Shown here piece by piece: positions 1 to 45,776 of a stretch of DNA of 45,776 nucleotides (position 1 is its first letter; the number at the start of each line of letters is the position of its first letter). Made by a program: the position numbers and the translations under genes. The notes beneath the pieces were generated by a model that ran no database searches, was not told the DNA's origin, and saw only the letters and a list, made by a program, of their open reading frames with translations. The stretch lies in the NCBI GenBank assembly GCA_007280375.1, contig QYQG01000021.1, forward strand, positions 1-45,776. Direction: 5' to 3'. The DNA comes from Betaproteobacteria bacterium (GTDB lineage Bacteria; Pseudomonadota; Gammaproteobacteria; Burkholderiales; Thiobacillaceae).

Positions 1-168
1 ACCGGTTTCACCGCGCACCAGCACCGTCACATAACCGCCACCGACAAACTGGCGACCAATCAAACGCACTTCTGCTGCCTTGGTCATTGCGTCCGCCGCT
101 TCGATAGCGGGAACCAGACCACGCGTTTCAATCATGCCCAAAGCAATACCTGTCATTCCACTCGCCAT
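1..168 (-). CDS. csoS1: Carboxysome shell protein CsoS1 (BMC-H hexamer). First 56 codons only; the C-terminus runs off the window edge.
   Basis: ATG at 168 is preceded by AAGGAG (plus-strand ctcctt, 176-181). Hand translation [56 protein letters not shown] is a canonical BMC-domain N-terminus. It follows csoS4B, as in alpha-carboxysome operons. Confidence 0.9.
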
Positions 169-225
169 GATACTTCTCCTTAAAAAACAGTTAATGAAAC
201 TTTACTTGCCACCTTTGCGGAGCGT

Positions 226-474
226 TTACTCCGCTTTCCACTGATCGATGATCCCGCAGATCGTCAGATCGGTTAAAACCTTGTAATCGCCAGCGGCATA
301 TCGAGCCGCCGAGCCACCGACGGTGAAAACCCATTTCCCCGGCGGTATGCCGACCGGGTCAACCGCCACCGACAGCTTGCCTTTTTCGTCTGCCAGCACG
401 CGTAGTGATGCGCAGGTCAGGCCGTTAATTCGGCGTGTCGCCACCAGATCGGACACCACACGCATGATTTCCAT
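226..474 (-). CDS. csoS4B: Carboxysome vertex protein CsoS4B (BMC-P / EutN-CcmL pentamer)
   Basis: The ORF track gives 226..522. I place the start at ATG 474 (MEIMRVVSDLVATRRINGL...), 1 nt after the csoS4A stop. The protein is a EutN/CcmL-like ~82-aa sequence. Confidence 0.88.
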   Translation of the reverse strand: MEIMRVVSDLVATRRINGLTCASLRVLADEKGKLSVAVDPVGIPPGKWVFTVGGSAARYAAGDYKVLTDLTICGIIDQWKAE

Positions 475-475
475 G

Positions 476-727
476 TCAGGACTCCTGCCAGTGATCGATG
501 ATCCCGATGATGGTGAGATCACTCGGAAAATCCTTGCTACCTGCTGCCTCGCGGGCGGCGGAACTGCCGACGCAAATCACCCAGTCGCCTGGGATGCAGC
601 CGACCGCATCCACCGCGACACTTGGGATGCCGCCACTTTTTTCCTTGACCACCAGCAAAGGGCGATGCCCCATTTCCTGTATCCGGTTGGTCGAAACCAG
701 CGTCTTTTCCACTTGCATGATCTTCAT
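476..727 (-). CDS. csoS4A: Carboxysome vertex protein CsoS4A (BMC-P pentamer)
   Basis: The 83-aa product MKIMQVEKTLVSTNRIQEMGHRPLLVV... is EutN/CcmL-like. GAGGTG lies upstream of ATG 727. The gene sits directly after csoSCA. Confidence 0.9.
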   Translation of the reverse strand: MKIMQVEKTLVSTNRIQEMGHRPLLVVKEKSGGIPSVAVDAVGCIPGDWVICVGSSAAREAAGSKDFPSDLTIIGIIDHWQES

Positions 728-736: not shown

Positions 737-2293
737 TCAATGCCCATGTGCGTTTATGTCGTTGTCTGCCACTGTTTCCAGGTCGCTGCCCGGCTGTTTG
801 GCCTGCGCGCTCATGCCAAAAACCAGCCAGCCATCCCGCATCAAATCCGGATAACGCGCCTCGATCGCGGCCTTGACGCGGCGGCAGCGTGCCACCGTGC
901 GTTCCCTCGATCCCGGCACCTGACTGTCGTAGCGGTAGTGAATCGCGACCGGAATCGGCAAACCGCGCGCCACGTTCAAGCGGCTAAAAATATTGATGCC
1001 CACATCCATGTCCGCCGCGCCTTCTTCAACCGTATACATGTGGCCAAAATAGGCCAGATTGCGCAGGTGAACTTCTTCAAAACCATCGCCAATGCTGATG
1101 AAGCGTTCGGCATGGCCGATGTCTGCGTAGCGCCCCTGGTGGTGCGTGCAGACGTAGTCGATCTGCGCCAGGTTGTTTGCCAGCAAACGCTCGATCAGTC
1201 GGCGCATGCCCGTCTCTGGCGCGCTGCGTCCATACCGCCGTGCCGTCTCATCGACGACCGACCCCAACTGTCTCAGCGCCTCCGGCGCGGCGCACTCAGC
1301 CGTCGCCTGATACAATGTTATGTTGTCGATCACACACTCCAGGCTCATGCCGCCCTGCGCATCCGGAACATGCACGCGGATGGCGTCGTTGTCCGTGTCC
1401 AGCCCGATCAGCAGGGTGGCGATGGAGGCGCCGCAGCAAAAACCGTTTTCAATCGCGGTGCCAAAAGCCACCAGCCGATCGAGCGCTGCCTGCGCGGCGC
1501 GGTGATCGTCGCTGCCGTGCGCCGCGCAGCCTTCGTGGGTCGGATCCGAGCTGCTGAAGTGGTACACCGCAATCTTGAGATAGCGTGTCCCTGACTCCGG
1601 CAAGGTCGGCACCCCTTCGCGAAAACGCCGCAATTCGGTCTCAGTCCACTGCTTCACGTTCTGCTCGATATCGAACAGGGTGCCGGCGTAAGACTTGTGC
1701 CGCCGAACCGCCTGTTGCGGCAGACGCAGGATGTACTGCAACAAGCCCTTGAGACGGCCATCGGCACAGGCACTTACGTCCACTTCGTGGAAACCGCATT
1801 CGATGAAGAACCGCGTCATCGCCGCTGCTTCCGCGTTGCCATCCTGTTGCGCGCCAGCTTCCCGTGCCAGATCGAGAAAGGTATGCAATACGCTGGCGCC
1901 ATAAAGCTTGCGCATGTCGAGCGCGCTCACCCAGGCATCCGCCAGCACGGTTTCATCGAGCGCAAAACCCAGACGCTCGCGCGCAATCTGCTGCGCCTGC
2001 GTCTCGAAATCGGCTTCATGCTGCCGCGCCGAAATCCGCTTGAGCGTCGGCACGATGTCATCGAAACGCGCCAGCACCCGGCGTTCGTAGTCCGCCATGC
2101 GCGTGTTTTGCCTTTGGTCGGCCAGCGGGTGCGCACGCGCCGCACACAAGGCGCTTACACACTCGCCGTTGCTGTCGGGCACCATGCCGGGCACGCAGAA
2201 GCTCACGCGTTGCGGCCAGCTCGGCATCGCCATCCCCACCGGGGCGACGGGGCTGACCTTGCGCACGAGCTTCTGGCGATTACGGGTATCCAT
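737..2293 (-). CDS. csoSCA: Carboxysomal carbonic anhydrase CsoSCA (CsoS3, epsilon / divergent beta class)
   Basis: 518 aa with N-terminus MDTRNRQK... like H. neapolitanus CsoSCA. It carries the active-site motifs SACADGRLKG (CxDxR) and YHFSSSDPTHEGCAAHG (His...Cys Zn ligands), plus GLDTDNDAIRVH. Position between csoS2 and csoS4A is canonical. Confidence 0.95.
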   Translation of the reverse strand: MDTRNRQKLVRKVSPVAPVGMAMPSWPQRVSFCVPGMVPDSNGECVSALCAARAHPLADQRQNTRMADYERRVLARFDDIVPTLKRISARQHEADFETQAQQIARERLGFALDETVLADAWVSALDMRKLYGASVLHTFLDLAREAGAQQDGNAEAAAMTRFFIECGFHEVDVSACADGRLKGLLQYILRLPQQAVRRHKSYAGTLFDIEQNVKQWTETELRRFREGVPTLPESGTRYLKIAVYHFSSSDPTHEGCAAHGSDDHRAAQAALDRLVAFGTAIENGFCCGASIATLLIGLDTDNDAIRVHVPDAQGGMSLECVIDNITLYQATAECAAPEALRQLGSVVDETARRYGRSAPETGMRRLIERLLANNLAQIDYVCTHHQGRYADIGHAERFISIGDGFEEVHLRNLAYFGHMYTVEEGAADMDVGINIFSRLNVARGLPIPVAIHYRYDSQVPGSRERTVARCRRVKAAIEARYPDLMRDGWLVFGMSAQAKQPGSDLETVADNDINAHGH

Positions 2294-2320: not shown

Positions 2321-4330
2321 TTAGCCGCGTGCGCCGCCAGACAGCGTCACCGCTGAGCCAGCCGTGCTGTTGCCGCTGCTGCCGGTGACTCGGCCGGGCG
2401 CCAGCGCCGGATGCTCCATTTCACGATTGACCCTGGCATTCATGACGCTACCGCGCGACTCACCGCGCTGAGTTGGGTTACGACTCGTCGCGGAACGTCC
2501 TTCGGTACCCGTCACGCGACCGCTACGATCCCATGCATCCCCTGTGACGCTGCGCTCGCGGCCTTCACCCGTAATGCGATCCGGCGCGGGTTCGGTTGCA
2601 ACCACAGCAGCGGCCACAGCGACTGCGGGTTCGCCGCCATCGCGATAACGGAATTCAGGCGTACCCGATACCAGACCGGCAGCGCGTGCCAGCGAACCGG
2701 TGATGCGACCCGTGCCACCAAAGGCGCTACCGGTGATGCGCCGGGTTTCACTGTCCTGAGCCGAGCGTGCCGGAGAAATCACAGAGAAATCACCCGGCTG
2801 ACGGCTGCCTGACGCATCCATCGCATTGCCAGAAACGCCGGGGCTTTGCGTCATACCCTCCGGGCCACGCGCGCGGTAATGCGTTGCCATAGCCGGGCGA
2901 CCGCAAGCGGTAGCCTGCTGAACCTCACCCATATAGGGTGAACCGCTCACGGTCTGACACTCGCCCCGTGTATTGCCGGTCAACTTGGCATCCGGTCCTG
3001 GCTGGATGCCGGTCAACTCGGCGTTACGACCCAGACGCTCACGATTGGCCGCTTCAGCGACCACTCGGGTGGCACAAAAATCAGCGTACTGATCGGCACC
3101 GATATAAGCCGTTCCCGTCACCGGCTTGCAGGCGCCATATTCGTCACCCGTCACGCTGGACGAGCGCCCAACCTGCGTACCCGAGACTTCTTGCCCCTTT
3201 ACGGTGCGCGACACGCCGACCTTGGCTGGTGACTGGTAAGGCTCTGCACGGCAAAACGAAGCAAACTCCTCGGCGCTCAGGTAATCAGAACCCGTCACAC
3301 GCTTGCAAGCACCTTGCTCAGCGCCGGAGATTTTCGATGAGCGCCCCAGTTGGGTGCCGCTCACCGCTCCGCCAACGCTCGTGTGACTGGTTTCCACCTT
3401 TTTTGGCGCATTTCCCGACTTACTGCGAAAGGGGCTGGCGTTGGTATACGCACTGCCTGTGATGGCGCGATTTGCACCGTGCTCGCCGCCCGTCACAGCG
3501 TTCTCGCGAGCGAGATCGCTGCCGCTAATCGCGTTTTTCATGGCCGTCATACCGAAGCCGGCCTTTTCCGGACGCGGCTCGGGCGAGGTGCCGCAGAATG
3601 TACCGGCCTGTTCGGCGGCGATATATTCGGTACCGGTCACGCGCTTGCAGGTGCCGGTCTCGTCGCCGGTCACTTTTTCGCTGCGCCCCACTTCGGTGCC
3701 GGTTACGCGACCGCCCCGGCTGGTGCTGCTGGCCCCTACCTTGGCAGGGGACGGTGCAGGCACCGACTTGCAAAACCGGCTAAATTGTTCGGTGCCAATG
3801 TATTCGGTGCCGGTTATCGCACGGCAGCTACCGGATTCATTGCCCGTCACGCTGGCAGTGCGTTCGATCTGGTTGCCGCTCACCGGCGTACCGGCCAGCG
3901 TCGTGCCGAATTCGACCTTGGGCGGCTCTGGCTGCATCCGCCCGCAGGGACGGCAAGCCGGCGCATCGCCACGGCCTCGCAAAGACTGGTCGATGCGGCG
4001 TTGCTGGGCGGCCGAGATGGGATCCAGAGTCAACGTCGATTTCGCATATTCAACGGTGGCAGAGGAAGACTCGCTGCGTTTGCAACCGCACTCGGAGGGC
4101 GTCGCACTGGCCACAGCCACAGCTGTAGTCGGAGCCGGCACAGAAACCGAGCTAGGCGAAGCATTTCCTTTTTGCGCCGCAAGCCGTGCTTGGGTGGCAC
4201 TGCTGCTTGCCGGGGCTTTACCACCGGTCAAACCCGCTTTTCCATGTAAGGAAAGTGCCCGACGGCGAGCCATCGCCGCCTCGCTGCCGGTCATACGTTC
4301 TGTTTGGGTGTCTGGTGTCGCTTGGCTCAT
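2321..4330 (-). CDS. csoS2: Carboxysome scaffold protein CsoS2 (intrinsically disordered, repeat-containing)
   Basis: 669 aa, Gly/Ser/Thr/Arg-rich. Two N-peptide-like motifs are present (GSEAAMARRRALSLHGKAG and PISAAQQRRIDQSLRGRG). Six middle repeats have (V/I)(T/S)G triplets and paired Cys. C-terminal RITG/VTG repeats follow. AAGGAA lies upstream of ATG 4330. Confidence 0.95.
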   Translation of the reverse strand: MSQATPDTQTERMTGSEAAMARRRALSLHGKAGLTGGKAPASSSATQARLAAQKGNASPSSVSVPAPTTAVAVASATPSECGCKRSESSSATVEYAKSTLTLDPISAAQQRRIDQSLRGRGDAPACRPCGRMQPEPPKVEFGTTLAGTPVSGNQIERTASVTGNESGSCRAITGTEYIGTEQFSRFCKSVPAPSPAKVGASSTSRGGRVTGTEVGRSEKVTGDETGTCKRVTGTEYIAAEQAGTFCGTSPEPRPEKAGFGMTAMKNAISGSDLARENAVTGGEHGANRAITGSAYTNASPFRSKSGNAPKKVETSHTSVGGAVSGTQLGRSSKISGAEQGACKRVTGSDYLSAEEFASFCRAEPYQSPAKVGVSRTVKGQEVSGTQVGRSSSVTGDEYGACKPVTGTAYIGADQYADFCATRVVAEAANRERLGRNAELTGIQPGPDAKLTGNTRGECQTVSGSPYMGEVQQATACGRPAMATHYRARGPEGMTQSPGVSGNAMDASGSRQPGDFSVISPARSAQDSETRRITGSAFGGTGRITGSLARAAGLVSGTPEFRYRDGGEPAVAVAAAVVATEPAPDRITGEGRERSVTGDAWDRSGRVTGTEGRSATSRNPTQRGESRGSVMNARVNREMEHPALAPGRVTGSSGNSTAGSAVTLSGGARG
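2900..3889 (-). repeat. In-frame tandem M-repeats of CsoS2: six ~55-aa units, each with three (V/I)(T/S)G motifs. Five of the six carry a Cys pair.
   Basis: Residues ~148-477 of the CsoS2 translation. Units begin TPVSGNQ, RVTGTEV, AISGSDL (Cys-less, degenerate), AVSGTQL, EVSGTQV and AELTGIQ. Confidence 0.85.
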
Positions 4331-4490: not shown

Positions 4491-4799
4491 CTAGTCAAAT
4501 TTCTCGCGCCGTAGTACCTGCGTATCGGACACAAAGGTCGCTAGGTGGTGGCCACGCTTCATCAGCTTTTCAACATCGGCCAACACCTGGTCCAGCTTGG
4601 ACTCCGGCACGAGCAGTAGGAACAAAATGTTGCTTTCGCCATCCAGCGCGCCGGTTTGCAAGCCCGCGCTGCCCGCGCCGCGCGCGTCCAGCACGGTATA
4701 GCCGGAGGCCTCGTGCGCCTCGGCGATATCAACCAGCCGCTCCTCCAGCGTGATGTTGGCGACGATGTTGATGAGTTTCATCGGATAAAGGGGCGGCAT
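4491..4799 (-). CDS. sbtB: PII-like signal-transduction protein, SbtB-like partner of the upstream permease
   Basis: 102 aa. KLINIVANITLEERLVDIAEAHEASGYTVLDARGAGSAG resembles the PII/SbtB fold sequence (KLVIV...GAKGYTV..GGKGS). AGAGAGGAA SD lies before ATG 4799, 27 nt after the sbtA-like stop. Confidence 0.8.
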   Translation of the reverse strand: MPPLYPMKLINIVANITLEERLVDIAEAHEASGYTVLDARGAGSAGLQTGALDGESNILFLLLVPESKLDQVLADVEKLMKRGHHLATFVSDTQVLRREKFD

Positions 4800-4826: not shown

Positions 4827-5807
4827 TTAGGCACCCGTCAGGCGGGCGGCAAGATAGTGATAAAGCGGGATGCCGACGATGACATTGAACGGAAACGTCA
4901 CCCCGAGCGACAGCGTTAAATAATAGGACGGGTTGGCTTCCGGAATGGCCAGCCGCATGGCGGGCGGCACTGCGATATACGACGCCGACGCACCCAGCAC
5001 CGCCACCAGCAACACACCGCCTTCGCCAAATCCCAGCCAATAGTGGCCGACCAGCAAACCCGCCGCGCCGCCGATCAGGGGCATCAGAATGCCGAACACC
5101 ACCAAAAACCCGCCGACGCGCTTGAACTCGCCAATGCGCTTGCTGGCTTCCATACCCATTTCCAGCAAAAACAGCGACAGTGCGCCCATGAACAGCGTGC
5201 CGAAAAACGGCGTAATAGTGTCAAGCGACGACGGCTTGACCGCTAGGCCAACCACCATCGCGCCGAACAACAGCATCACGCTGCCGTTGGTAAACGCGTC
5301 GCGCAGCAGTTCGCCCATGTGATTTTCGCGGGCATTTTCTGCGTCGTGCGCTTGACTGCCACGCGAGAATCGCGCCAGTAACAGGCCGATAATAATCGCG
5401 GGCGATTCCATGATTGCCAGCATGATGAGCGGATAGGTTTCGTACTCGATCTGCTGCGCGCTGAGGTAGGCGATTGCGGTCAGGAACGTACCCGCGCTGA
5501 CCGAGCCGTAATGCGCGGCAATGGCCGAGGCGTTGAGCTTGTCGATGCGCCCAGCCAGCAAAATAACATAGGCCACAATCGGCAGCCCAAGACCCAGCAC
5601 CAGCGCGGCGGCCACCGCTTGCGTCGCTTCGCCCAGATCGGCGTGCGCCAGCTCGATCCCGCCTTTAAGGCCGATGCCAATTAATAGATAAATCGACAGC
5701 GCCTTGGCCAGATCAGGCGGAAACTTAAGGTCGGACTTGACCGCCTGCGCCAGAAAGCCCAGGGCAAAAAACAGCACCGCCGGAATCAGCAGATTACTCA
5801 AATCCAT
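4827..5807 (-). CDS. sbtA: SbtA-like (DUF897/Sbt_1 family) putative sodium-dependent bicarbonate transporter
   Basis: 326-aa polytopic protein. The N-terminus MDLSNLLIPAVLFFALGFLAQAVKSDLKFPP and the C-terminal segment MGMEASKRIGEFKRV...ASASYIAVPPAMRLAIPEANPSYY parallel cyanobacterial SbtA (MGMEAWSRIGELRKV...SSSDISGPPTLRAGIPSANPSAY). Confidence 0.85.
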   Translation of the reverse strand: MDLSNLLIPAVLFFALGFLAQAVKSDLKFPPDLAKALSIYLLIGIGLKGGIELAHADLGEATQAVAAALVLGLGLPIVAYVILLAGRIDKLNASAIAAHYGSVSAGTFLTAIAYLSAQQIEYETYPLIMLAIMESPAIIIGLLLARFSRGSQAHDAENARENHMGELLRDAFTNGSVMLLFGAMVVGLAVKPSSLDTITPFFGTLFMGALSLFLLEMGMEASKRIGEFKRVGGFLVVFGILMPLIGGAAGLLVGHYWLGFGEGGVLLVAVLGASASYIAVPPAMRLAIPEANPSYYLTLSLGVTFPFNVIVGIPLYHYLAARLTGA

Positions 5808-6114: not shown

Positions 6115-7095
6115 TTGAAATTACGTAACGTCACCTTGAACCAGATGCGCATCTTCCACAGCCTCGGCCGGAACTTGAGCTTCACCCGTGCCGCAGAAGA
6201 GCTGTTTCTGTCCCAGTCGGCGGTATCGATTCAGGTCAAGCGCCTGGGGGAAAGCGTGGGCATGCCCCTGGTTGAACAAGTGGGCAAGCGCATTTTTCTA
6301 ACCGAAGCCGGCAAGGAGTTGTTCGAGGCCTGCCGTGATGTACTTGATCGCTTGCGGGTGCTGGATGAGGACATGACAGGGCTCGAAGAAGGGGTGAGGG
6401 GGCCGCTCAACCTCGCGGTCATCACCACCGCGAAATACTTCATGCCCCACTTGCTCGGTGTCTTTCTGCGCGAGCACCCGGCAGTTGAACCCCGCCTGAC
6501 GGTCACCAATCAGACGCGAATTTTCGAAAGGCTGGAGAGAAACATGGATGACCTGGTCATCATGGGAACCCTGCCCGAAAACCTCGACCTAGAGACGGCG
6601 CATTTTCTGGACAACCCCCTGGTCGTGGTGGCGCCACCCGATCATCCGCTGGTGGGGGTGAAAAGCATTCCGCTGGAGCGACTCGTGCAGGAGCGCTTTC
6701 TGTCACGCGAGCCGGGTTCCGGCACGCGCGCGGCGCGCACCCGCCTGTTTGCCGAGCACGGGCTGGCGATTCGGACTTACATGGAACTGGGCAGCAGCGA
6801 GGCGATCAAGCAGGCCGTCATGGCCGGGTTGGGCATCTCAGTGCTCTCCATCCACAACCTGCGTCTCGAATTGAAAACCGGCCTCATCGCCGTGCTGGAT
6901 GTGGAGCACTTTCCCTTGCATCGGCAGTGGTATGCCGTACACCTGAAGGGCAAAAAGCTGTCGGCGACGACGCGCATGTTCCTAGATTTTTTACTTAAGG
7001 ACGGTGCCCGAGTCTGTGAAGAGATCCAGCCCTATTTGACGGGCTTGTCACCGTCCCCCAAAAAGCCCGGCCCAAGAAAAAGAGACATCAGGTAA
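6115..7095 (+). CDS. LysR-family regulator, CbbR-like paralog, divergent from the sbtA-cso operon
   Basis: TTG start at 6115 lies 7 nt after AGGAG (6103-6107). The N-terminal HTH LSFTRAAEELFLSQSAVSIQVKRLGESVGMPLVEQVGKRIFLTEAGKEL closely parallels the cbbR at 26815. Confidence 0.88.
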   Translation: MKLRNVTLNQMRIFHSLGRNLSFTRAAEELFLSQSAVSIQVKRLGESVGMPLVEQVGKRIFLTEAGKELFEACRDVLDRLRVLDEDMTGLEEGVRGPLNLAVITTAKYFMPHLLGVFLREHPAVEPRLTVTNQTRIFERLERNMDDLVIMGTLPENLDLETAHFLDNPLVVVAPPDHPLVGVKSIPLERLVQERFLSREPGSGTRAARTRLFAEHGLAIRTYMELGSSEAIKQAVMAGLGISVLSIHNLRLELKTGLIAVLDVEHFPLHRQWYAVHLKGKKLSATTRMFLDFLLKDGARVCEEIQPYLTGLSPSPKKPGPRKRDIR

Positions 7096-7135: not shown

Positions 7136-8281
7136 CTATAGCGCGTCACGCACCTGTTTCGCCAGCGCCAGGGCAGCGGCGCTGTCCATGTCCAGCACGT
7201 TGAAGTGCCCCATTTTGCGTCCCGGACGGGCGGCGGCTTTACCGTACAAATGCAGCTTAATGGCGGGGTGCGCCAGCAGCGTTTCCCAGCGTGGGCTGTG
7301 CGTTTGCCAGCGCTCACCCAAGATGTTAACCATCGCCACCGGCGACAGCAAGCGCGTGTCGCCCAGCGGCAGCCCTGCCAGCACCCGCACCTGTTGTTCA
7401 AACTGGTCGGTCACGCAAGCATCTAGGGTGTAATGCCCGGAATTGTGCGGACGCGGCGCGATTTCGTTGATCAGCAACTGGCCATTGGCGACAAAAAACT
7501 CGACCGCCATTACGCCGACATAGGCCAGTTGCTCGGCCACCTCACGCGCCATCGTGCAGGCCTGCTGCATCAGCGCATCGGCTACGCGGGCGGGAACAAT
7601 ACTGATGTCGAGGATGCCATTGACATGTTGGTTTTCGGCCAGAGGGAACAGGGCGCAGCGTCCGTCATCGGCGCGTGCCAGCACGACAGAGACTTCGCAT
7701 TCCAGTTGCACAAAGCCTTCTAGCACGCACGCCTGGCCGCCAAAGGCCTGGAACGCGGCGCGGGCTTCGGCCACGCTGCTAACCTTGGCCTGGCCTTTGC
7801 CGTCGTAGCCAAAGCGCGAGACTTTCAATAAGGCGGGGGTTCCAGTGAGCGCCAGCGCGGCGTCTAGATCGGATGCGGCACTGACTATGGCAAACGGCGC
7901 AGTGGCAAACGCGTGCTCGCGCAGCCATGTTTTTTCGTGGCTGCGATCCTGCACGATGGCCACCGCCGCTGCACCGGGCGATACCCGGCAAACCCTCGCC
8001 AGCTCGATCAGGCTGGCCGCCGGAATATTTTCGAATTCGGTCGTCACGGCAGCGCACGCCTGCCCCATGCGGCGCAGTGCCGCGTGGTCGGTGTAGTCGG
8101 CCTGCACATGCAGGTCGGCCATTTGCCCTGCCGGGCTGGCGGGGTCGGGATCGAGCACGATCACCCGATAGCCCATGGTGCGTGCCGCCATCGTGAACAT
8201 GCGCCCCAACTGACCGCCGCCCAAAATACCGAGGGTTGCGCCCGGCAAAATCGGCAACATGGGCGCGGGCTTATTCGACAT
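7136..8281 (-). CDS. purK: N5-carboxyaminoimidazole ribonucleotide synthase PurK
   Basis: 381 aa with the ATP-grasp N-terminus [13 protein letters not shown]. It overlaps the purE stop by 11 nt. Confidence 0.93.
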
Positions 8282-8765
8282 CCGGCAGCCCCATCGCCAT
8301 CACCGAATCGGCCTGCGCCCGGCGGAAGTCATGCAGCCGCTGCGCTAACGCCGTGTCATAGCGTGCGATCAAAGCCGCTGCAAACAGGGCGGCGTTGGCC
8401 GCGCCCGCCTCGCCCACGGCAAAGGTCGCAACCGGAATCCCCTTGGGCATCTGCACAATCGACAGCAGCGAATCCATGCCCTTGAGATACTTCGACGGAA
8501 CCGGCACGCCCAGCACCGGCACGATGGTTTTAGCCGCCAGCATCCCCGGTAAATGCGCCGCCCCGCCCGCGCCCGCGATGATGGCCTTGAGGCCACGCGA
8601 CTCAGCGCCTGTCGCGTACTCAAACAGCAAGTCCGGCGTGCGATGCGCCGACACCACCTGCGTCTCAAACGGAATACCGAGCTGTTTTAACAGCATCGCC
8701 GCCTGCTTCATCACCTCCCAATCGCTGGAAGAACCCATTACCACGCCAACCAAGGGTGTACTCAT
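8271..8765 (-). CDS. purE: N5-CAIR mutase PurE
   Basis: The ORF track gives 8271..8834. The conserved start is [19 protein letters not shown] at ATG 8765. Confidence 0.92.
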
Positions 8766-8852
8766 GTTTGTGTCTCGCTGTTGTCTTGCGCAAGTCAGGA
8801 TTTTACCTGAGAGCGCGCCTCCGTTGGTTGTCATGCTCGAAAATCACCCCGA

Positions 8853-9908: not shown

Positions 9909-9917
9909 GGGGCGAGT

Positions 9918-11573: not shown

Positions 11574-11584
11574 GGGTTATCGCT

Positions 11585-13258: not shown

Positions 13259-13344
13259 GATTTATCTCCTGATGTGAGCCGTGCCCAAAGCGCGGTGGCC
13301 GGGGACATGGGGTGTGGAATCTTGCAAACGAATACCGTACGAGT

Positions 13345-15382: not shown

Positions 15383-15402
15383 GGATTCTGTTCCTGCGGG
15401 CT

Positions 15403-15810: not shown

Positions 15811-15811
15811 T

Positions 15812-29474: not shown

Positions 29475-29517
29475 TTGTGTGCCAAACCATCTTAGTGTTA
29501 TGCGCTAAGCGGTAAGG

Positions 29518-29550: not shown

Positions 29551-29579
29551 CCAGATTAAAACCCTCACAGGATAACGCT

Positions 29580-30380: not shown

Positions 30381-30414
30381 CCCCCCCCAATGACCCGCTC
30401 AGGATAAACAGGCC

Positions 30415-38891: not shown

Positions 38892-40157
38892 CTAGCTCGG
38901 ATGCCAGCCCACGGTAAGCAACATGATGAAGAAGCCGATGACATAGGCGACGGCGATATGCCAACCGTGGCGTAACCACAAGCCCACCGAGCGTGCCTCG
39001 GGGAAGATGCTGGATAAGGCGACGCCAGCGGAGGAGCCGAACCAGATCATCGAGCCACCAAAGCCGACCGCATAGGCGAGCACGCCCCAGTCATAGCCGC
39101 CCTGCGTTAAGGCCAGCGCGGTGAGCGGGATGTTGTCGAACACGGCGGAGACAAAACCTAGGCCAAAGGCGGTCTCCCAGGCGGCCACGGGGAGTTTTTC
39201 GACCGGCATCATCGAGGCGCAGAGCACTAGGGAAAGCAGGAACACGCTGCCCTTGAAGGCCTCGGGGAGGAGACTCCATTCGGGTCGTTTGAAAGGGGTG
39301 GCGGCCAAGAGTGCGACCCAGACGGCGACGCCGATGAAGGGAAAGGCCGTGGCGATGTTCGAATATTGGGTGTTGACGACGATGTTGGCGCCGATGGCAG
39401 CGGCGAGGATGAGGCCGACAACCCCGATGCGCCCCCAGTCTATGCTCAGGTTGGAGGTGTCGCTGGCGTGGATGGGGGCATAACGGGCCTGTTGCTTGGC
39501 CGCGATGATGCCGAAGATAAACAGCGCCGGGATGGCGGCGACATAGGCGTGCAGCACCTCCATGGGGCCGATGCCGCTGATCCACATCATGGTGGTGGTG
39601 GTATCGCCGACGACGGATCCCGAGCCGCCGGCGTTGGAGGCGGCGACGATGGCGGCGAGATAGCCAATATGGACCCGGCGCCGGTACACCGTGGCCGCGA
39701 CGGTGGCGCCAATCAAGGCGGCGGCGATGTTGTCCAGAAAGGAGGACAGCACGAAGATCATGATGAGAAGGACGAAGCCGCCACGCCAGTCGCCGGGCAG
39801 ATAGCGCGGGATAATGGCGGGGATGCCAGATTCTTCAAAGTGACGGGCCAATAGGGAAAAGCCGAGCAGCAAGCCGAGCAGATTGGCGATTGTGACCCAT
39901 TCGTGGCCGAGGTGAGTGAATAGGCCCTCTAGCCCGGTGATGCCGCGAAAGTCGGTGAAGCCGAGTTTGTAGAGGATGATGCTGGCCAGCCCAGTGAGCG
40001 CGACATAGAGGGTGGAATGGTGGAAGACGGCTACGCCCAACAGGGTAAGGGCGAAGAAGATGAAATCGATCGGGATGCCCGCGAGTTCGGGGCCGGTGGC
40101 GGCCAGCGCCGGCAGCGGTAAGCACAGTAAAACCAGACAAAGAGAGACGCGATTCAT
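38892..40157 (-). CDS. nhaD: NhaD/ArsB-superfamily permease, probable NhaD-type Na+/H+ antiporter
   Basis: The ORF track extends to 40454. A plausible start is ATG 40157 (MNRVSLCLVLLCLPLPALAATG...). 421 aa, polytopic, with FFALTLLGVAVFHHSTLYVALTGLA resembling the NhaD N-terminus as I recall it. Confidence 0.65.
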   Translation of the reverse strand: MNRVSLCLVLLCLPLPALAATGPELAGIPIDFIFFALTLLGVAVFHHSTLYVALTGLASIILYKLGFTDFRGITGLEGLFTHLGHEWVTIANLLGLLLGFSLLARHFEESGIPAIIPRYLPGDWRGGFVLLIMIFVLSSFLDNIAAALIGATVAATVYRRRVHIGYLAAIVAASNAGGSGSVVGDTTTTMMWISGIGPMEVLHAYVAAIPALFIFGIIAAKQQARYAPIHASDTSNLSIDWGRIGVVGLILAAAIGANIVVNTQYSNIATAFPFIGVAVWVALLAATPFKRPEWSLLPEAFKGSVFLLSLVLCASMMPVEKLPVAAWETAFGLGFVSAVFDNIPLTALALTQGGYDWGVLAYAVGFGGSMIWFGSSAGVALSSIFPEARSVGLWLRHGWHIAVAYVIGFFIMLLTVGWHPS

Positions 40158-40272: not shown

Positions 40273-40692
40273 ATGTTTAGACAGCTTGTACCCATTGATG
40301 GTTCTGATTCCGCGTACCGCGCTCTGCGTTTTGTGTGTGCCGGCCCCTGTGATGATACCGAGATCCATGTGCTCAATGTCCAAGAACCTATCGTGGACTG
40401 GGAGGTGCGTCGTTTTATGCGCGATGACGAGATCGAGGCGATGTTACGCGCCAAGGCCGAAACCTTCTTGGCCGAGGCCGAGGCGATAGCGGTTGCGGCG
40501 GGGCGGCGCGTCGTGCGTCATCTCTACCTAGGTGAAACCGCGCACGGCATCGCCGAGCAGGCTAAGGCCTTGGCCTGCGATCAGATTGTCATGGGGTCGC
40601 GCGGCATGAGCGCCTTGCAGGGCATGCTGTTAGGCTCGATCTCGAGCAAGGTCTTGCATCTGGTGGACATCCCCGTGACGCTGGTGAAATAG
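40273..40692 (+). CDS. Universal stress protein (UspA family)
   Basis: 139 aa with GGAGGA SD. ...QIVMGSRGMSALQGMLLGSISSKVLHLVDIPVTLVK is a typical USP C-terminal ATP-binding motif. Confidence 0.9.
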   Translation: MFRQLVPIDGSDSAYRALRFVCAGPCDDTEIHVLNVQEPIVDWEVRRFMRDDEIEAMLRAKAETFLAEAEAIAVAAGRRVVRHLYLGETAHGIAEQAKALACDQIVMGSRGMSALQGMLLGSISSKVLHLVDIPVTLVK

Positions 40693-40694
40693 CG

Positions 40695-41751
40695 ATGCAT
40701 ACGCTCCCCATACAGCAACGGATCGAGTGGTTGTTTGACCTAGCCTATCGGCACGCGGATGAGTTTGTGATGCCGGAGGCCTTCTTGGCACGCAAGCGTT
40801 ATCTGGCCGAACACCCAACGGCGATCTTGGTGCTTAAGTGCATGGATGGGCGTATCAATATTCCGATCGCGACCAATACGCCCGCAGGCATTATTCAGCC
40901 CTTTCGAAACTTGGGCGGGATGTTTAACCTTGGTTGGCCGCATCTGGGGGAGACGCTGGCCGATGCGGTCAATAAGTCGGTGAATCGTGGTCGCCGTAGT
41001 CTGATCATGATTACCTATCACTACTCTAAGGGTAGCGAGCGTCGCGGCTGTGCGGGGTTTAACTACTGCACAGATGCGGCGCGCGCACACCTTTGAGATC
41101 AAGGCGCAAGTGGAATCGCTCTTTGGTGATGCGCATGGTACGGTGTATCCGTTGGTGTGCGGGTTTGAGACCGATGAGGATGCCATTATCTTGCATGGCG
41201 TGACGGGCGAGTTGCTGAACATGAGCGATGTCAGTGCTCAAGGTGCGGCGGGGCGCGAGGGGTTGCCGGCGCAGGTGCTGCGCCTCTTCCCGGACATGCC
41301 GACGCAGGTGCGCGTCGACTTGTTGCCCTTGCTGCTGGGCAATCTTGATCACATCGCTGAGGTGCGTCAGGCGGCGCGGCCTTTGGCGGTCGAGCACCGC
41401 GAATGGATGATTTGCGTGGGCCGCGGCTTTGATTGGTTGCACATGCCGAATCTGGCCCTCATCATCGGTCCCTATAGCCCAGATCTGGCGGACCCGATTC
41501 GTAAGGCGGCGGGCATCATCGAGGCCAATATGCAGGCGGGACGCATCCCTGACGATGGTTTTTTGTTATTGGCCTCTGCGCCTTATGACGAGGTGGGCGT
41601 CGATCGTGCCCGCGCCGTACTGAAGGCGCGTTTTATGGGCGAGTTTGCCGCTGAGGTAATCCAGGCATCGCATCCGGCGGTCGCGGCCAAGATGACGCGC
41701 AAAACGGGCGTTCTGAACTGGGGGACGCGATCCTTGGAGGTGTTTCGTTAA
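40695..41751 (+). pseudogene. CsoSCA-like protein, paralog 2, interrupted by a frameshift at ~41079-41090
   Basis: Two ORFs (40695..41096 and 41050..41751) together align end-to-end with paralog 1 at 19946-20995. The frames switch at DAARAH|TFEIKAQ, inside a (GC)4(AC)2 tract. Confidence 0.8.
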
Positions 41752-41853: not shown

Positions 41854-43992
41854 ATGAACGGTTTTTCTCGTTACCTCCCTTTTGTGAAATGGTTTCCGCT
41901 GGACAAGGACACCTTGAAATTTGATTTCTTGGCGGGGATTACCGTTGCCTTGATTATCATCCCGCAGTCGATGGCGTATGCCCAATTGGCGGGGATGCCA
42001 GCCTATTACGGCCTTTATGCCGCGTTTTTGCCGGTCGCCGTCGCAGCGTTGTTTGGGTCGAGTAATTTTTTAGGCACGGGCCCGGTCGCGGTGGTGTCGT
42101 TGTTGACCGCGTCGTCGCTGGCCCCGTTGGCCGCGCCTGGCTCAGAACAGTTTATCGCCTTGGCTATCTTGCTGGCTTTGCTGGTGGGTCTCGTTCAGAT
42201 CACCTTGGGCGTGTTCAAGCTGGGTGTTGTGGTCAACTTTCTGTCGCATCCGGTCATTGTGGGATTCACTAATGCGGCGGCGATCATCATCGGTTTGTCA
42301 CAGGTGTCCAAGTTGTTTGGGGTGCCGATGGGTCGCTCCGAGCATTTTCTGAACGACATCTGGGGCGTGTTTGCGCAGATTGGCGATACGCACCTGCCCA
42401 CCTTGGCGATGGGCGCGTTGGCGATCGCGTTGATGTGGGGGATGAAGCGATTCGTGCCTAAATGGCCGGGGGTCTTGGTGGCGGTAGTGGTCACGACAGC
42501 CCTGTCGTGGGGAATGGGGTTTGAGAAAAACATGCCGGGGACCACCGCGCAGATCATGAGCCCCGATCTGGCGGTGAGGGTCAACGAGGTTTATCGCGCG
42601 CAACAAGAACAGCACCGCGTGACTGAGCATAAATCACGCCTCAGCGCGGCCTTGACCTACGCGCGTAAGCACGAGAAGGTCGAGAGCGTAGAGACGGCGC
42701 GTGTGGCGTACGATTTAGAATTGGCGGAGATCGCCTTGCTGAAGGCCGAGGCAGAGACCGCATTACTCAAAAAGAGCCTGCGCCAGACATGGGTGGTGCG
42801 GGTTAAGGATGGCGTAGGCGGCACGGCAATCTATCTTGCCGATCATGCGCCTGCTGACCGGCAGACCGATGGCTATCGCTATCGTATCCGGTCTATCCAA
42901 GGGGATGGTTTCCAGTTGGTCGGTGGCGGCGAGGTGGTGGGTGCCGTGCCCGAGGGTCTGCCGGCGATGGCGATGCCCGACCTTAACTGGGATGCGCTGG
43001 CCTCTTTGTTGTCGGCGGCGATCGTCATTTCCTTGGTGGGCTTTATGGAGGCGATCTCAATCGCTAAGGCCTTGGCAACTAAGGCCAAACAAAAGGTCGA
43101 TCCTAATCAAGAGTTGATCGGTCAGGGCTTGGCCAATATCGTCGGCGGTTTTACGCAGGCGTTTCCGGTGTCAGGTTCGTTTTCGCGCTCGGCGGTTAAT
43201 TTTGACGCAGGCGCTAAGACCGGGATGGCGGCGGTGATTACGGCGGTGTTTGTGTTGATTGCCTTGTTGTTTTTGACCCCCTTGCTCTATCACCTGCCGC
43301 AGGCGGTGTTGGCCGCAATCATTATCATGGCGGTGGCGGGCTTGGTGAACTTCGAGGCGGTCAAGCATGCATGGCAGGCGAGTCGGCATGACGGGGTGGC
43401 GGCAATCGTGACCTTTGTTGCAACGATGTTGGTGGCGCCGCATCTGGACAAGGGCATTATGGTCGGTGCCGGATTGGCGATTTTGCTTTTTCTCTATCGC
43501 ACCATGACCCCGCGTGTGGCTATTTTGGGTCGTTACCACGATGGCACGCTGCGTGATATTAAGGTCAATCCTAATCTGGCAACCAGTAAACATGTTGTGG
43601 CGATGCGTTTTGATGGTTCGCTTTATTTTGCCAATGTCGCCCATTTTGAGGATGCGGTGTTGGAGGTGGTGGCCGATCATAAGGAGGCAACATTTATCCT
43701 CGTTGTCGGTGATGCCATCAACCAACTCGATGCCTCGGGTGAAGAGGTCGTGCATCACCTTGTCGATCGTCTCCGCGAATCGGGTATCGAGTTGATCTTC
43801 TCTGGTCTAAAGAAACAGGTTCTTGATGTTATGCGACAGACGCATCTGTTCGATCTGATCGGCGGGGGGAACATCTTTGCTACGGAGAATCAAGCCTTGG
43901 CGGCAATCTACGAGCGACTTGGCGCAGACGCGGCCGATGACCTGCTCTGTCCGTTGCCCTCACCGTGGGGGCAAACCGCATCGCATTCATGA
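41854..43992 (+). CDS. SulP-family anion transporter with STAS domain and a ~130-aa insertion in an extramembrane loop (copy 3)
   Basis: I place the start at ATG 41854 (MNGFSRYLPFVKWFPLDKDTLKFDFLAGITVALIIIPQSMAYA). The SulP core and STAS domain (VVAMRFDGSLYFANVAHFED) are present. Residues ~226-357 have no counterpart in copies 1 and 2. Confidence 0.88.
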   Translation: MNGFSRYLPFVKWFPLDKDTLKFDFLAGITVALIIIPQSMAYAQLAGMPAYYGLYAAFLPVAVAALFGSSNFLGTGPVAVVSLLTASSLAPLAAPGSEQFIALAILLALLVGLVQITLGVFKLGVVVNFLSHPVIVGFTNAAAIIIGLSQVSKLFGVPMGRSEHFLNDIWGVFAQIGDTHLPTLAMGALAIALMWGMKRFVPKWPGVLVAVVVTTALSWGMGFEKNMPGTTAQIMSPDLAVRVNEVYRAQQEQHRVTEHKSRLSAALTYARKHEKVESVETARVAYDLELAEIALLKAEAETALLKKSLRQTWVVRVKDGVGGTAIYLADHAPADRQTDGYRYRIRSIQGDGFQLVGGGEVVGAVPEGLPAMAMPDLNWDALASLLSAAIVISLVGFMEAISIAKALATKAKQKVDPNQELIGQGLANIVGGFTQAFPVSGSFSRSAVNFDAGAKTGMAAVITAVFVLIALLFLTPLLYHLPQAVLAAIIIMAVAGLVNFEAVKHAWQASRHDGVAAIVTFVATMLVAPHLDKGIMVGAGLAILLFLYRTMTPRVAILGRYHDGTLRDIKVNPNLATSKHVVAMRFDGSLYFANVAHFEDAVLEVVADHKEATFILVVGDAINQLDASGEEVVHHLVDRLRESGIELIFSGLKKQVLDVMRQTHLFDLIGGGNIFATENQALAAIYERLGADAADDLLCPLPSPWGQTASHS

Positions 43993-44014
43993 GGCGGCGG
44001 GTTAGAACACGATA

Positions 44015-45460
44015 ATGTTACACACGCTGCTGGCTTTACCCTTGTTGGGTGTCGTGCTGATCGCGCTGTTGCCCGTGCGCTGGACGCGTGTGATCGCGTT
44101 GATGACCGCCGGGGTGACGCTGGCCTTTTCGCTCGTGTTGCTGGTGTCGTTTGATCTGCAAGAGGCGGCGCCACAGTTGTTTGAGACGCATCGCTGGAAC
44201 CCGCGGCTCGGCTCGGCCTTTTCGTTGGCCATTGATGGGTTTTCGTTGCCGATGATCTTGCTGGCCACGCTGTTAGTCGTGATCTCGGTGTTGGCCTCGG
44301 GCGGCATTCGGACGCGTCAAAAAGGCTATTACGCCCTGATCTTGATGTTGGAAAGCGCCATGCTCGGGGTGTTTTCGGCACGCGATTGGTCGTTGTTTTA
44401 TGTGTTTTGGGAACTGACCCTGATCCCGTTGTTTTTCTTGATCGACCGTTACGGCGGCGTGCATCGTAGCCGTGCGGCGCTGAACTTCGTGCTCTATACC
44501 ATGGGCGGTTCGACCTTCATGCTCATCGCACTGTTGATGCTCTATGATCTTTCGGCGGCGCATAGCTTTGATATGACCGTCTTGCGCGAAACGGGGCGCA
44601 GTCTGCCGGCCGAGACGCAGGCCTGGTTGTTTGCTGGGTTGTTGATCGGCTTCGGCGTAAAGATGCCGATCTTTCCATTGCATGGTTGGCTCCCGCTCGC
44701 GCATGTGGAGGCGCCGAGTCCGGTTTCTATCCTGTTGTCGGGCATCCTGCTGAAGATGGGCAGTTATGGTCTGATCCGTGCGGCGAGTGCCTTGCCCGCT
44801 GGGGCGCAGGTTTTGCAGCCGCTTTTAGTTGCCTTGGGCTTGATCAGTTTGATCTACGGCGGGGTGTTAGCCTGGCAACAACGCGACCTCAAAAAGATGG
44901 TGGCCTATTCGTCCTTCTCGCATATGGGGGTGGTCTTGTTGGGCATCGCCTCGTTAAATGCGCTGGGTTTTACGGGGGCCATCGTGCAGATGGTGGCGCA
45001 TGGCCTAGTCGCGGGCGCGCTGTTTTTGCTTATAGGCTTGCTGTATGAGCGCACGCATACTCGTGATATTGGCGATTACGCCTCGCTGGTGCGCGTGATG
45101 CCGCGCTTCGCATTCTTTACGGTGCTGGCCTTGGTCGCGGCCGTGGGCTTTCCGGGGACGGTGGGTTTCGTCGCTGAACTGCATGTCTTGCTCGGTGCCT
45201 TTGATCAGTTTGGTCTCTGGGCGGCCTTGCTGTCGTTGGGTGTGTTGATCTCGGCGGCCTATGCCTTGCGCACGGTGGGGCGGCTCTTCACCGGCCCGAT
45301 TAGTCCAACCATGCAGCAGATCCCCGACCTGACGCGAACCGAGTTTATGGCCGCCGCCGTACTGACCAGTGGCATCTTGGTGCTAGGGGTGTTTCCGATG
45401 GGCTTGTTGGCGCTGGTGAGCCCGTCGGTCGAGCGCCTGGCGCGCCTGTTCGGCGCATGA
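44015..45460 (+). CDS. dabB: DabB: PF00361-type proton-conducting membrane subunit (NuoM/NdhD-like) of a DAB inorganic-carbon pump
   Basis: 481 aa. LAIDGFSLPM, FYVFWELTLIPLFFLI, GVKMPIFPLHGWLPLAHVEAPSPVS, VAYSSFSHMG and IVQMVAHGLVAGALFLLIGLLYERTHTRD mirror E. coli NuoM motifs. A DUF2309 gene follows directly. Confidence 0.85.
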   Translation: MLHTLLALPLLGVVLIALLPVRWTRVIALMTAGVTLAFSLVLLVSFDLQEAAPQLFETHRWNPRLGSAFSLAIDGFSLPMILLATLLVVISVLASGGIRTRQKGYYALILMLESAMLGVFSARDWSLFYVFWELTLIPLFFLIDRYGGVHRSRAALNFVLYTMGGSTFMLIALLMLYDLSAAHSFDMTVLRETGRSLPAETQAWLFAGLLIGFGVKMPIFPLHGWLPLAHVEAPSPVSILLSGILLKMGSYGLIRAASALPAGAQVLQPLLVALGLISLIYGGVLAWQQRDLKKMVAYSSFSHMGVVLLGIASLNALGFTGAIVQMVAHGLVAGALFLLIGLLYERTHTRDIGDYASLVRVMPRFAFFTVLALVAAVGFPGTVGFVAELHVLLGAFDQFGLWAALLSLGVLISAAYALRTVGRLFTGPISPTMQQIPDLTRTEFMAAAVLTSGILVLGVFPMGLLALVSPSVERLARLFGA

Positions 45461-45476
45461 GCGTGAGGTAAAAGGG

Positions 45477-45776
45477 ATGAACACGCATACGAACGCGCCT
45501 ACTTCGACAGACCCACAGGCAGCCTCTAAGGCGCGCCTGGACGCGTTGCTGCACCACTTGGAGCATGTGTTGCCCGCGCAGGCGCCGATTCGTGATTTCG
45601 TTCATCACAACACCTTGCATGGCTACCAGCATTTGGCATTTCCGGATGCCTTGCGTGCAGCGCGGGAGCTGACCGGAGCCGAGGGTTATCTGCCGCCGGA
45701 GCGTTTTCGTGTCTTGTATGCCGAGGGGCGTATCGATGCGACGGACTTGGACGCGGCCTTGGAGCAGGCTGATATC
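45477..45776 (+). CDS. dabA: DabA (DUF2309/UPF0753) N-terminal 100 codons; continues beyond the window
   Basis: ATG 45477 lies 8 nt after GAGG. Hand translation ...LLHHLEHVLPAQAPIRDFVHHNTLHGYQHLAFPDALRAARELTG matches the P-I-x-D-F-(I/V)-H-H-N-T-L-H signature of UPF0753/DUF2309 proteins. Confidence 0.85.
   Translation, partial: MNTHTNAPTSTDPQAASKARLDALLHHLEHVLPAQAPIRDFVHHNTLHGYQHLAFPDALRAARELTGAEGYLPPERFRVLYAEGRIDATDLDAALEQADI

Follow-up and report, generated by a model that had tools for sequence, protein, structure and literature searches.

We describe a 45,776-nt stretch of DNA (contig QYQG01000021.1 from a member of the Thiobacillaceae; the whole stretch is called the window below) in which candidate uptake systems for dissolved inorganic carbon (DIC) lie around the genes for two RuBisCOs and an alpha-carboxysome. 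We take the window to be a chromosomal piece from an uncultured sulfur oxidiser of fresh water, Thiobacillus-like, that bears the CO2-fixation island of its lineage. Its long, non-overlapping open reading frames (ORFs) were scanned against Pfam and NCBIfam to give a gene map, which resolves into three carbon modules and a 12-kb housekeeping block (7136-18888). Apart from the corrections made below, these scans recovered every gene listed in an earlier note on this sequence, at or near the place given for it. Its claim that candidate DIC-uptake systems are stacked around RuBisCO and carboxysome genes is backed by comparative genomics of 80 SbtA-like loci. The first module comprises:

1..168, minus strand: csoS1, BMC shell hexamer, 5' part only, running off the window edge (PF00936, 62 bits)
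226..474, minus strand: csoS4B, pentamer vertex protein (PF03319 EutN_CcmL, 73 bits)
476..727, minus strand: csoS4A, pentamer vertex protein (PF03319, 83 bits)
737..2293, minus strand: csoSCA, three-domain carboxysomal beta-carbonic anhydrase (CsoSCA_N, CsoSCA_cat, CsoSCA_C; TIGR02701, 643 bits, cut-off 241)
2321..4330, minus strand: csoS2, carboxysome assembly protein (PF12288, 483 bits)
4491..4799, minus strand: P-II-like gene (SbtB/CPII-like), Sbt partner (PF00543, 55 bits)
4827..5807, minus strand: SbtA-family (Sbt_1) permease, candidate HCO3- transporter (PF05982, 377 bits, cut-off 27)
6115..7095, plus strand: cbbR-like LysR gene, divergent from sbtA (best NCBIfam match CbbR NF045990, 248 bits, cut-off 450)

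The gene set of an alpha-carboxysome (csoS2, csoSCA, two csoS4 and csoS1) is present on one strand, at 1-4330. The typical arrangement in which cbbLS precedes csoS2 is not found here; the PII-like and SbtA-like genes lie upstream instead, and cbbS ends ~20.4 kb away. Judged by gene order, the cso locus is of the 'split' alpha-carboxysome type of Thiobacillaceae, with SbtA-PII in the slot usually held by cbbLS. The permease scores above its Pfam cut-off for Sbt_1, is homologous to solved SbtA (7CYE, E 2.6e-34, in two stretches) and has a PII-like neighbour 27 bp downstream, from which csoS2 is separated by 160 bp, all on the strand of the cso genes. The P-II-like protein itself is only weakly similar to SbtB and CPII (2CZ4, 2e-9; CPII 5D4N, 5e-5; SbtB 6N4A, 3e-4). 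An SbtA-like protein 95% identical to that of the window is encoded at locus L090, in the same order SbtA-PII-csoS2-csoSCA-csoS4A.

The second module, which contains both RuBisCO operons, consists of:

19946..20995, minus strand: CsoSCA2a, short non-carboxysomal CsoSCA homologue, intact, 349 aa (PF20686, 30 bits, cut-off 21.5)
21053..21349, minus strand: orf98, conserved 98-aa protein of no known function, after cbbO (homologue alignment)
21442..26634, minus strand: cbbL-cbbS-cbbQ-cbbO, form IA RuBisCO and activase pair (Pfam: PF00101, CbbQ_C, VWA)
26815..27774, plus strand: cbbR, divergent from cbbL and upstream of cbbM (best NCBIfam match CbbR, 230 bits, below the cut-off of 450)
28095..32712, plus strand: cbbM-cbbQ-cbbO, form II RuBisCO and activase pair (NF010002, 891 bits, cut-off 489; CbbQ_C, VWA)

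Here cbbLSQO, orf98 and CsoSCA2a run along the minus strand from a central cbbR that is shared with the cbbMQO operon on the plus strand. The large subunit is form IA-like and is followed by cbbS, cbbQ and cbbO; its best solved relative is the encapsulated enzyme of H. neapolitanus (1SVD, 980 bits, versus 618 bits for the form IC enzyme 1BXN). Form II is identified by cbbM (890.8 bits against a cut-off of 489), which lacks a small subunit gene and has cbbQ directly next to it. Two CbbR-like genes are thus arranged divergently in the window, that at 6115-7095 facing sbtA and that at 26815-27774 facing cbbL. Both fall short of the CbbR equivalog cut-off of 450 bits (248 and 230 bits), a model that is Rhodobacter-specific, and CbbR is still the best match of each. 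A third LysR gene (18975-19919) is NhaR-type rather than CbbR-type. A search for CbbR boxes in the three regulator intergenic regions returned generic T-N11-A boxes only, with no shared motif.

Promoter and terminator scans of the window gave results barely above shuffled expectation, the only sensible terminator-like hairpins being those after cbbS (24722-24736), after cbbM (29530-29542) and after cbbO2 (32742-32756). The position of hairpins between the RuBisCO genes and cbbQO suggests attenuation. No terminator is predicted between cbbO, orf98 and CsoSCA2a, CsoSCA2a lies 57 bp from orf98 on the same strand, and it is apparently co-transcribed with cbbLSQO.

orf98 represents a family of 473 homologues, all ~98 aa long and sharing 46 invariant columns, that has no counterpart in Pfam or NCBIfam. 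Its AlphaFold2 model (pLDDT 85) consists of three helices and returned no fold match in the PDB. In four other loci (L008, L075, L078, L088) it directly follows cbbO, and in L165 it lies beside cbbQ/cbbO; genes for SulP-STAS-USP proteins and psiE also recur near cbbLSQO-orf98 in relatives.

The third module begins with a 280-aa protein of no family and psiE, and continues to the end of the window:

34396..35742, plus strand: ChrA-family permease, two-domain (PF02417 x2; TIGR00937, 234.5 bits, cut-off 171.7)
35745..36059, plus strand: rhodanese, 104 aa, 2 bp behind ChrA (PF00581)
36198..38708, minus strand: SulP2, a SulP-STAS protein fused to two USP domains (PF00916, 324 bits; STAS; Usp x2; BicA, 165 bits, cut-off 880)
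38892..40157, minus strand: ion-transporter-superfamily permease, 421 aa, distantly NhaD/CitMHS-like (all NhaD/CitMHS cut-offs missed)
40273..40692, plus strand: stand-alone USP, 2 bp before CsoSCA2b (PF00582, 92 bits)
40695..41751, plus strand: CsoSCA2b, second CsoSCA2 copy, frameshifted (63% identical to copy a)
41854..43992, plus strand: SulP3, SulP-STAS protein with an insertion (PF00916, 355 bits in two stretches; BicA, 131 bits, cut-off 880)
44015..45460, plus strand: NuoM/NdhD-like antiporter subunit, first gene of the DabA operon, 481 aa (TIGR01972, 498 bits)
45477..45776, plus strand: dabA, first 100 codons (PF10070 on the full 1080-aa product)

The 280-aa protein (32775-33617, between cbbO2 and psiE) is rich in Ala, Pro and Thr, begins with a signal-peptide-like segment and matches no Pfam or NCBIfam family. 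ChrA is a Chr-family member by its two Chromate_transp domains and its TIGR00937 score above cut-off. SulP2 and SulP3, together with SulP1 of the housekeeping block, contain both the SulP transmembrane and the STAS domain (PF00916, PF01740), and by these domains and their BicA scores the three are SulP family members rather than BicA orthologues. Homologues of SulP2 (71-75% identical) lie near cbbLSQO-orf98 in L075 and L088. The start of SulP2 is uncertain: the ATG at 38708 has no canonical start codon in front of it, conserved residues of the SulP N-terminus extend ~30 codons further, and the gene call of the Joint Genome Institute (JGI) extends to 38804, giving an 868-aa product. In SulP3 an insertion of ~130 aa (about residues 236-375, partly coiled-coil-like) splits the Sulfate_transp domain, a split shared by homologues of 62-68% identity and ~715 aa. 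The permease at 38892-40157 fails each NhaD or CitMHS threshold (TIGR00775, 59 of the required 577 bits; NF038006, 36 of 80; CitMHS, 25 of 32), so that of the five DIC-transporter families named previously four stand (Sbt, SulP, Chr and a DAB-type complex) and the NhaD-like one is uncertain. A homologue of this permease, 72% identical, adjoins USP and CsoSCA2 genes in L075, and the USP beside CsoSCA2b likewise keeps its neighbours in relatives.

Whether the clustering exceeds chance was examined by comparison with other genomes. Metagenome contigs were scanned with the SbtA-like protein and 80 loci were kept; an alignment of CsoSCA2 was scanned against public data, one genome per species, and again 80 loci were kept, whose ORFs were labelled by BLAST against the proteins of the window. 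Among the SbtA-like loci a PII gene was found in 45 and a CbbR gene in 46, with csoS2, ChrA and a SulP3-type gene within 8 kb in 24, 11 and 11, respectively, counts from which neighbours beyond the ends of the many short contigs are missing. The ChrA-rhodanese pair is kept in eight of the 11 ChrA-bearing loci. Within 10 kb of CsoSCA2, 25 of the 80 loci contain the last gene of a five-gene DabA operon, which lies downstream on the opposite strand in at least 24 of these 25 (its ORF-based position in L081 is ambiguous) and within 650 bp in 19; cbbO (6/80), SulP3-type (7/80) and ChrA (4/80) genes are other neighbours. One Thiobacillus metagenome-assembled genome (MAG; L008) brings together rhodanese, ChrA, cbbR, cbbLSQO, orf98, CsoSCA2 and a convergent DabA operon more tightly than the window does, and L102 contains purEK, rhodanese-ChrA, SulP3, SbtA-PII, cbbR, cbbLS and cso genes in ~12 kb.

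The same families adjoin in different orders across many unrelated contigs, which argues that the clustering is more than chance; on this comparison the gene families stay linked across a wide range of taxa and gene orders. The neighbourhood comparison with relatives that the earlier note had proposed did find shared linkage, in Thiobacillus MAGs and in other taxa. The cluster is real and non-random, and it extends known patterns while overturning nothing. The description 'exceptionally dense' was an overstatement: L102 is denser, the arrangement has already been published and the window is a typical case. As for the suggestion that the uncharacterized genes are candidates by association, it survives for CsoSCA2 (25 of 80 beside a DabA operon, 6 beside cbbO), orf98, the small ChrA-linked rhodanese and the USP modules, and lacks support for a 144-aa rhodanese and for SulP1, both of which lie in the housekeeping block.

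Three CsoSCA-family genes had been counted in the window. One of them (737-2293) is a genuine CsoSCA; the other two are short homologues of the CsoSCA2 type, ~350 aa long. A search of the PDB with the single CsoSCA2a sequence gave no match, and a profile and a low-confidence model were needed to place it: a profile of eleven CsoSCA2 proteins matches the CsoSCA structures 8THM and 2FGY (E ~4e-6), and the top four Foldseek matches of a CsoSCA2a model of low confidence (pLDDT 51) are all CsoSCA (E 3e-11). The residues of the zinc site (C51, D53 and R55 of the C-x-D-x-R motif, H111 and C121) are invariant in CsoSCA2. CsoSCA2a belongs to this type by its short N-terminus, its place outside the cso operon and its retained catalytic residues.

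CsoSCA2b does not keep an intact frame. The reading frame switches around the letters CAC CTT TGA (about 41080-41090), and tblastn with copy a matches it in two frames (66% and 61% identity). Contigs from runs X1 (115x), X3 and X4, belonging to two studies, have the identical frameshift without any indel. As it is reproduced in three independent runs, the frameshift is a trait of the population, and an assembly error was rejected as its cause. The CTT TGA that results matches the slippery motif at the programmed +1 site of prfB, and a programmed +1 frameshift at CUU UGA is possible but unsupported, there being no Shine-Dalgarno-like element upstream. The break looks like a 2-bp loss from CACACC TTT GAG, within the CACAC run. 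A carboxysome-based mechanism is defeated when a cytosolic carbonic anhydrase is expressed alongside HCO3- pumps, and the loss of CsoSCA2b, whose gene is aligned with those of SulP3 and the DabA operon, may fit such a conflict, though as a hypothesis only.

The operon that leaves the window with dabA continues on a longer contig (L085:10001-19279), where DabA (1080 aa) is followed by a NuoL-like protein of 519 aa and two PF00361 gene products of 507 and 496 aa. The gene at 44015-45460 had been called DabB. It is NuoM/NdhD-like instead, with NuoM/NdhD as its best PDB matches (8e-88) and DabB2 not among the 60 best PDB chains listed for it; the NuoL-like equivalent of DabB follows dabA outside the window. 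That 519-aa NuoL-like protein (Proton_antipo_N) matches solved DabB2 (9RD0_B, 2e-32), and DabA matches solved DabA2 (9RD0_A, 1.3e-59) with the C-x-D-x-R and GHGS..NNPH..DCGAC motifs conserved. Instead of the two genes of DAB2 or the three of DAB1, five genes are present. With a gap of 2 bp between USP and CsoSCA2b, 22 bp between SulP3 and the NuoM-like gene and 16 bp between the latter and dabA, the genes form one co-oriented run. The five-gene set recurs in more than 20 species, with 50-70% identity in Thiodiazotropha, Rhodocyclaceae and Thiobacillus genomes. Neither the five-gene DabA operon nor a link between it and CsoSCA2 was found described in the literature that we searched, which is not proof of novelty.

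It is tempting to speculate that CsoSCA2, SulP3 and the five-gene operon belong to one undescribed machine, resembling the membrane arm of complex I and serving energised CO2/HCO3- handling, which would occur widely among sulfur-oxidising and rhodocyclacean bacteria and in which CsoSCA2 would act as the soluble partner, not as a free housekeeping carbonic anhydrase. We consider this possible but doubtful. If true, the CsoSCA2b frameshift would represent selection against the soluble partner in a lineage that also runs carboxysomes. In a Sulfuricella-like locus (L080:11070-20648; also L027, L042 and L067) a SulP3-type gene heads a row encoding a NuoL-like protein, a NuoH-like protein, a 228-aa protein, a NuoM-like protein, a NuoC/D fusion and NuoB. 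This SulP3-headed module is Ehr-like or group-4-hydrogenase-like and is convergent on CsoSCA2; the operon points in the same direction as the single-machine idea.

Several lines of evidence place the window in its source. The CsoSCA2a protein (P0001) is encoded identically on a 104.7-kb JGI metagenome contig (3300022553, Ga0212124_10000044), to which the NuoM-like protein of the window also maps, and on contigs of three further samples, which makes four in all (L001-L004); its gene neighbours are shared by L001-L003. DNA runs containing the window sequence are freshwater and lake-water metagenomes, and the nearest named relatives of its proteins are Thiobacillus MAGs (79-87% identity for CsoSCA2, 94-96% for CbbL). 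GC content is 57-67% across the window, and scans for tRNA genes and Rfam families found none in it. Over the last part of the window (32000-45776), starting at ~32 kb, GC skew increases from about 0 to values between +0.11 and +0.19.

Between the carboxysome and RuBisCO modules lie the genes that we place outside the carbon system, together with a regulator at their edge:

7136..18888, minus strand: housekeeping block (Pfam and NCBIfam matches)
9918..11573, minus strand: SulP1 (TIGR00815, 236 bits, cut-off 380; BicA, 104 bits, cut-off 880)
15403..15837, minus strand: rhodanese, 144 aa, inside the housekeeping block
18975..19919, plus strand: NhaR-type LysR gene, convergent with CsoSCA2a (NF008284 NhaR, 240 bits, cut-off 219)

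The block encodes purK, purE, an AI-2E permease, SulP1, ilvD, pyrC, a VC0807-family protein, rhodanese, terC, DUF1232, htpX, UPF0114 and an HPF-like protein, and is, SulP1 included, outside the carbon system. SulP1 had been counted as a member of the DIC cluster, a place that its position among housekeeping genes denies it. The 144-aa rhodanese keeps company only with terC and htpX in relatives, a neighbourhood that looks like inherited synteny. An NhaR-type LysR gene adjoins CsoSCA2 also in a distant MAG (L074:9009-9947), co-directional there and convergent in the window. Genes for purE and purK (7136-8834 in the window) adjoin the SbtA-like gene in seven of the 80 metagenome loci (L093, L102, L124, L128, L132, L133 and L139). 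PurK uses HCO3-; the adjacency of purEK and SbtA may be functional linkage or plain synteny.

The best explanation that we can offer for the whole, and one that we hold to be probable, is a Thiobacillus-like CO2-fixation island whose uptake systems feed carboxysomes and are put to condition-specific use. At low CO2, HCO3- would accumulate in the cytoplasm through cation-coupled uptake, for which Sbt, one or more of the SulPs and perhaps Chr are the candidates, and the DabA complex would carry out energised, vectorial hydration of CO2 driven by the membrane potential. The HCO3- pool would enter carboxysomes, where CsoSCA would release CO2 for form IA RuBisCO. Form II RuBisCO would be used at high CO2 or low O2, and CsoSCA2a may hold CO2 and HCO3- in equilibrium for RuBisCO outside carboxysomes while the concentrating mechanism is switched off. 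Condition-specific control would fall to the PII-like protein, the STAS and USP modules and the two CbbR. Beyond gene content and conserved linkage, we infer this mechanism from the published mechanisms of the named families.

A number of observations weigh against such an explanation. All three SulPs miss the BicA equivalog cut-off (NF050096, 880 bits) by a wide margin, at 104, 165 and 131 bits for SulP1, SulP2 and SulP3. The only form I RuBisCO in view is of the cbbQO-linked type, which may not lend itself to encapsulation; an active cytosolic CsoSCA2a would short-circuit a carboxysome-based mechanism if co-expressed with it. Beyond the few hairpins, the promoter, terminator and CbbR-box scans are little informative. 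No RNA run contains more than 16% of the cbbL words, and the best metatranscriptomes report on relatives. In runs X5-X8, from another community whose contigs are 85-95% identical to the window (19000-33000), cbbLS is covered and cbbM is about ten-fold deeper; no CsoSCA2a transcripts were found among these RNA contigs of relatives, compared at 85% likeness. Two published results tell the same way: carboxysomes have not been seen in Thiobacillus denitrificans despite its cso genes (PMC9164163), and a Chr transporter and a distal SulP of Thiomicrospira pelophila failed to rescue carbonic-anhydrase-free Escherichia coli (PMC12628692).

The strongest rival is that several of the permeases (SulP1-3 and the ChrA-rhodanese pair) carry sulfur oxyanions and not inorganic carbon, and lie near the cbb genes by sharing an energy and carbon island; we regard this as a serious possibility, if short of an even chance. 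A sulfur oxidiser makes much sulfate and must export it. Sulfate and chromate gave the families concerned their names, the partner of ChrA is a rhodanese, which is a sulfur-transfer fold, and TusA and DsrE-like genes adjoin cbbR-cbbL in L088; the low BicA scores, the failed T. pelophila rescue and the housekeeping surroundings of SulP1 speak for it as well. Sulfur transport accounts less readily for the recurrence of ChrA-rhodanese and SulP3-type genes beside SbtA-PII, cbbR and carboxysome genes in varied orders, for the position of SulP3 22 bp upstream of the DabA operon, or for SulP3 at the head of operons convergent on CsoSCA2 in other genera. Moreover, a carboxysome-adjacent SulP and a Chr moved DIC in other chemolithoautotrophs (PMC12628692, PMC10880623): the Sbt and SulP encoded beside the T. 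pelophila carboxysome locus, and a DabA-type complex of that species, do rescue carbonic-anhydrase-free E. coli (PMC12628692), and one Chr-family transporter moves HCO3- (PMC10880623). Family membership is no guide to substrate, and in T. pelophila it failed to predict DIC transport.

It is also conceivable, though unlikely, that the cso genes build no working carboxysomes, a suspicion already raised for T. denitrificans, and that free form IA and form II RuBisCO are served by CsoSCA2a and the uptake systems. The cso operon has no cbbLS, the sole form I RuBisCO in view has the cbbQO linkage noted above, an intact CsoSCA2 follows the form I genes in the same operon, and T. denitrificans is without polyhedral bodies. 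Set against this, the cso genes are intact and full length (CsoSCA scores 643 bits), CbbL is nearest to the encapsulated enzyme of H. neapolitanus, Thiobacillus thioparus, whose locus is syntenic, makes polyhedral bodies (PMC9164163), and the CsoSCA2 copy beside uptake genes is inactivated, as expected where a carboxysome-based mechanism is in use. Quite improbable, in our estimate, is that the clustering is merely the inherited gene order of one lineage, without shared function or regulation, the three modules and the housekeeping block being accidental neighbours. The 12 kb of housekeeping genes between the cso and cbb modules would fit this, as would the cso-cbbLS distance, which varies from 2.6 to 21 kb among Thiobacillaceae (PMC9164163), and the rhodanese, terC, htpX, HPF and NhaR genes that are syntenic with CsoSCA2 also in L074 and L075, as descent alone predicts. 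Descent alone is, however, inadequate where the same families are neighbours in many orders and orientations, and where the adjacency reaches distant taxa (Thiodiazotropha, Rhodocyclaceae, Sulfuricella and metagenome contigs).

For the CO2-fixation island with condition-specific uptake that we favour, much of the arrangement is familiar: publications already cover the split carboxysome loci of Thiobacillaceae, CsoSCA2 and the stacking of transporters next to carboxysome genes. Thiobacillaceae keep csoS1-4 at 2.6-21 kb from cbbLS (PMC9164163, the review from which we took the T. denitrificans gene order). The window shares with these loci csoS2-csoSCA-csoS4AB-csoS1 without cbbLS immediately upstream, cbbLS lying ~20 kb off and so inside that range, and a cbbR flanked by form IA cbbLSQO and form II cbbMQO; it differs in having the sbtA-like and PII-like genes in the position of cbbLS. 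Split loci of T. denitrificans and T. thioparus were reportedly described by Cannon in 2003 and Beller in 2006. The flanking transporters, orf98, a cbbO-linked CsoSCA2 in Thiobacillus and a second, broken CsoSCA2 are absent from the discussion in PMC9164163.

That review named the CsoSCA2 type and noted its retained catalytic residues, its occurrence near cbbLS in Sulfuricella and, as a proposal for that genus, CO2/HCO3- equilibration by CsoSCA2 for free RuBisCO (PMC9164163). The copies described here share the short N-terminus, the retained Cys-Asp-Arg/His/Cys residues and the location outside carboxysome loci; the window differs in that a single locus contains two copies, of which one is frameshifted, and the frequent convergent adjacency of CsoSCA2 and the five-gene DabA operon (25 of 80 species) is unmentioned in PMC9164163.

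Stacking of several transporter families near carboxysome loci has been described already (PMC12628692, PMC10880623), and T. pelophila has six candidate transporters of four families (PMC12628692). Like the window, the Thiotrichales (Hydrogenovibrio, Thiomicrorhabdus and Thiomicrospira pelophila) combine unrelated candidate Sbt, SulP, Chr and DabA-type systems in one genome, some beside the carboxysome locus. The window differs from these sets in being betaproteobacterial, in having candidate transporters around two RuBisCO operons too, and in its five-gene DabA operon. How chemolithoautotrophs concentrate CO2 is understood for no more than three Gammaproteobacteria (PMC12628692). A betaproteobacterial island with Sbt-PII in the cbbLS slot offers a compact and testable parts list for a freshwater sulfur oxidiser, and the comparisons point to the unknowns to take first: CsoSCA2, which is widespread and unstudied, orf98, which is tied to cbbLSQO, the ChrA-rhodanese pair and the five-gene DabA operon. 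The permease and PII-like pair is shared also with cyanobacterial SbtA-SbtB, at a distant level of similarity (E 2.6e-34 for SbtA, 3e-4 for SbtB).

Less ordinary in the window are the frameshift that CsoSCA2b shows reproducibly and the five-gene DabA operon with its ties to CsoSCA2 and SulP3. Of the known complexes, DAB2 is built from two subunits and DAB1 from three, one of which, the small DabC, is similar to half a NuoM. With DAB1 and DAB2 of H. neapolitanus and T. albus the operon shares a PF10070 DabA with a beta-carbonic-anhydrase-like zinc motif and a NuoL-like PF00361 partner directly after dabA. Unlike DAB2 (DabA2-DabB2) and DAB1 (DabA1-DabC-DabB1), it has five genes with a full-length NuoM/NdhD-like subunit before dabA, two further PF00361 genes after the NuoL-like gene, no small DabC and a SulP gene 22 bp upstream. 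A parallel in subunit make-up is offered by the cyanobacterial NDH-1 CO2-uptake modules (NdhD3/F3-CupA), which likewise combine NuoM-like and NuoL-like subunits with a CO2-hydrating protein, although DabA is unrelated to CupA and the window operon encodes no redox module. The five-gene operon may show DabA coupling to a longer antiporter chain than in the solved DAB1 and DAB2.

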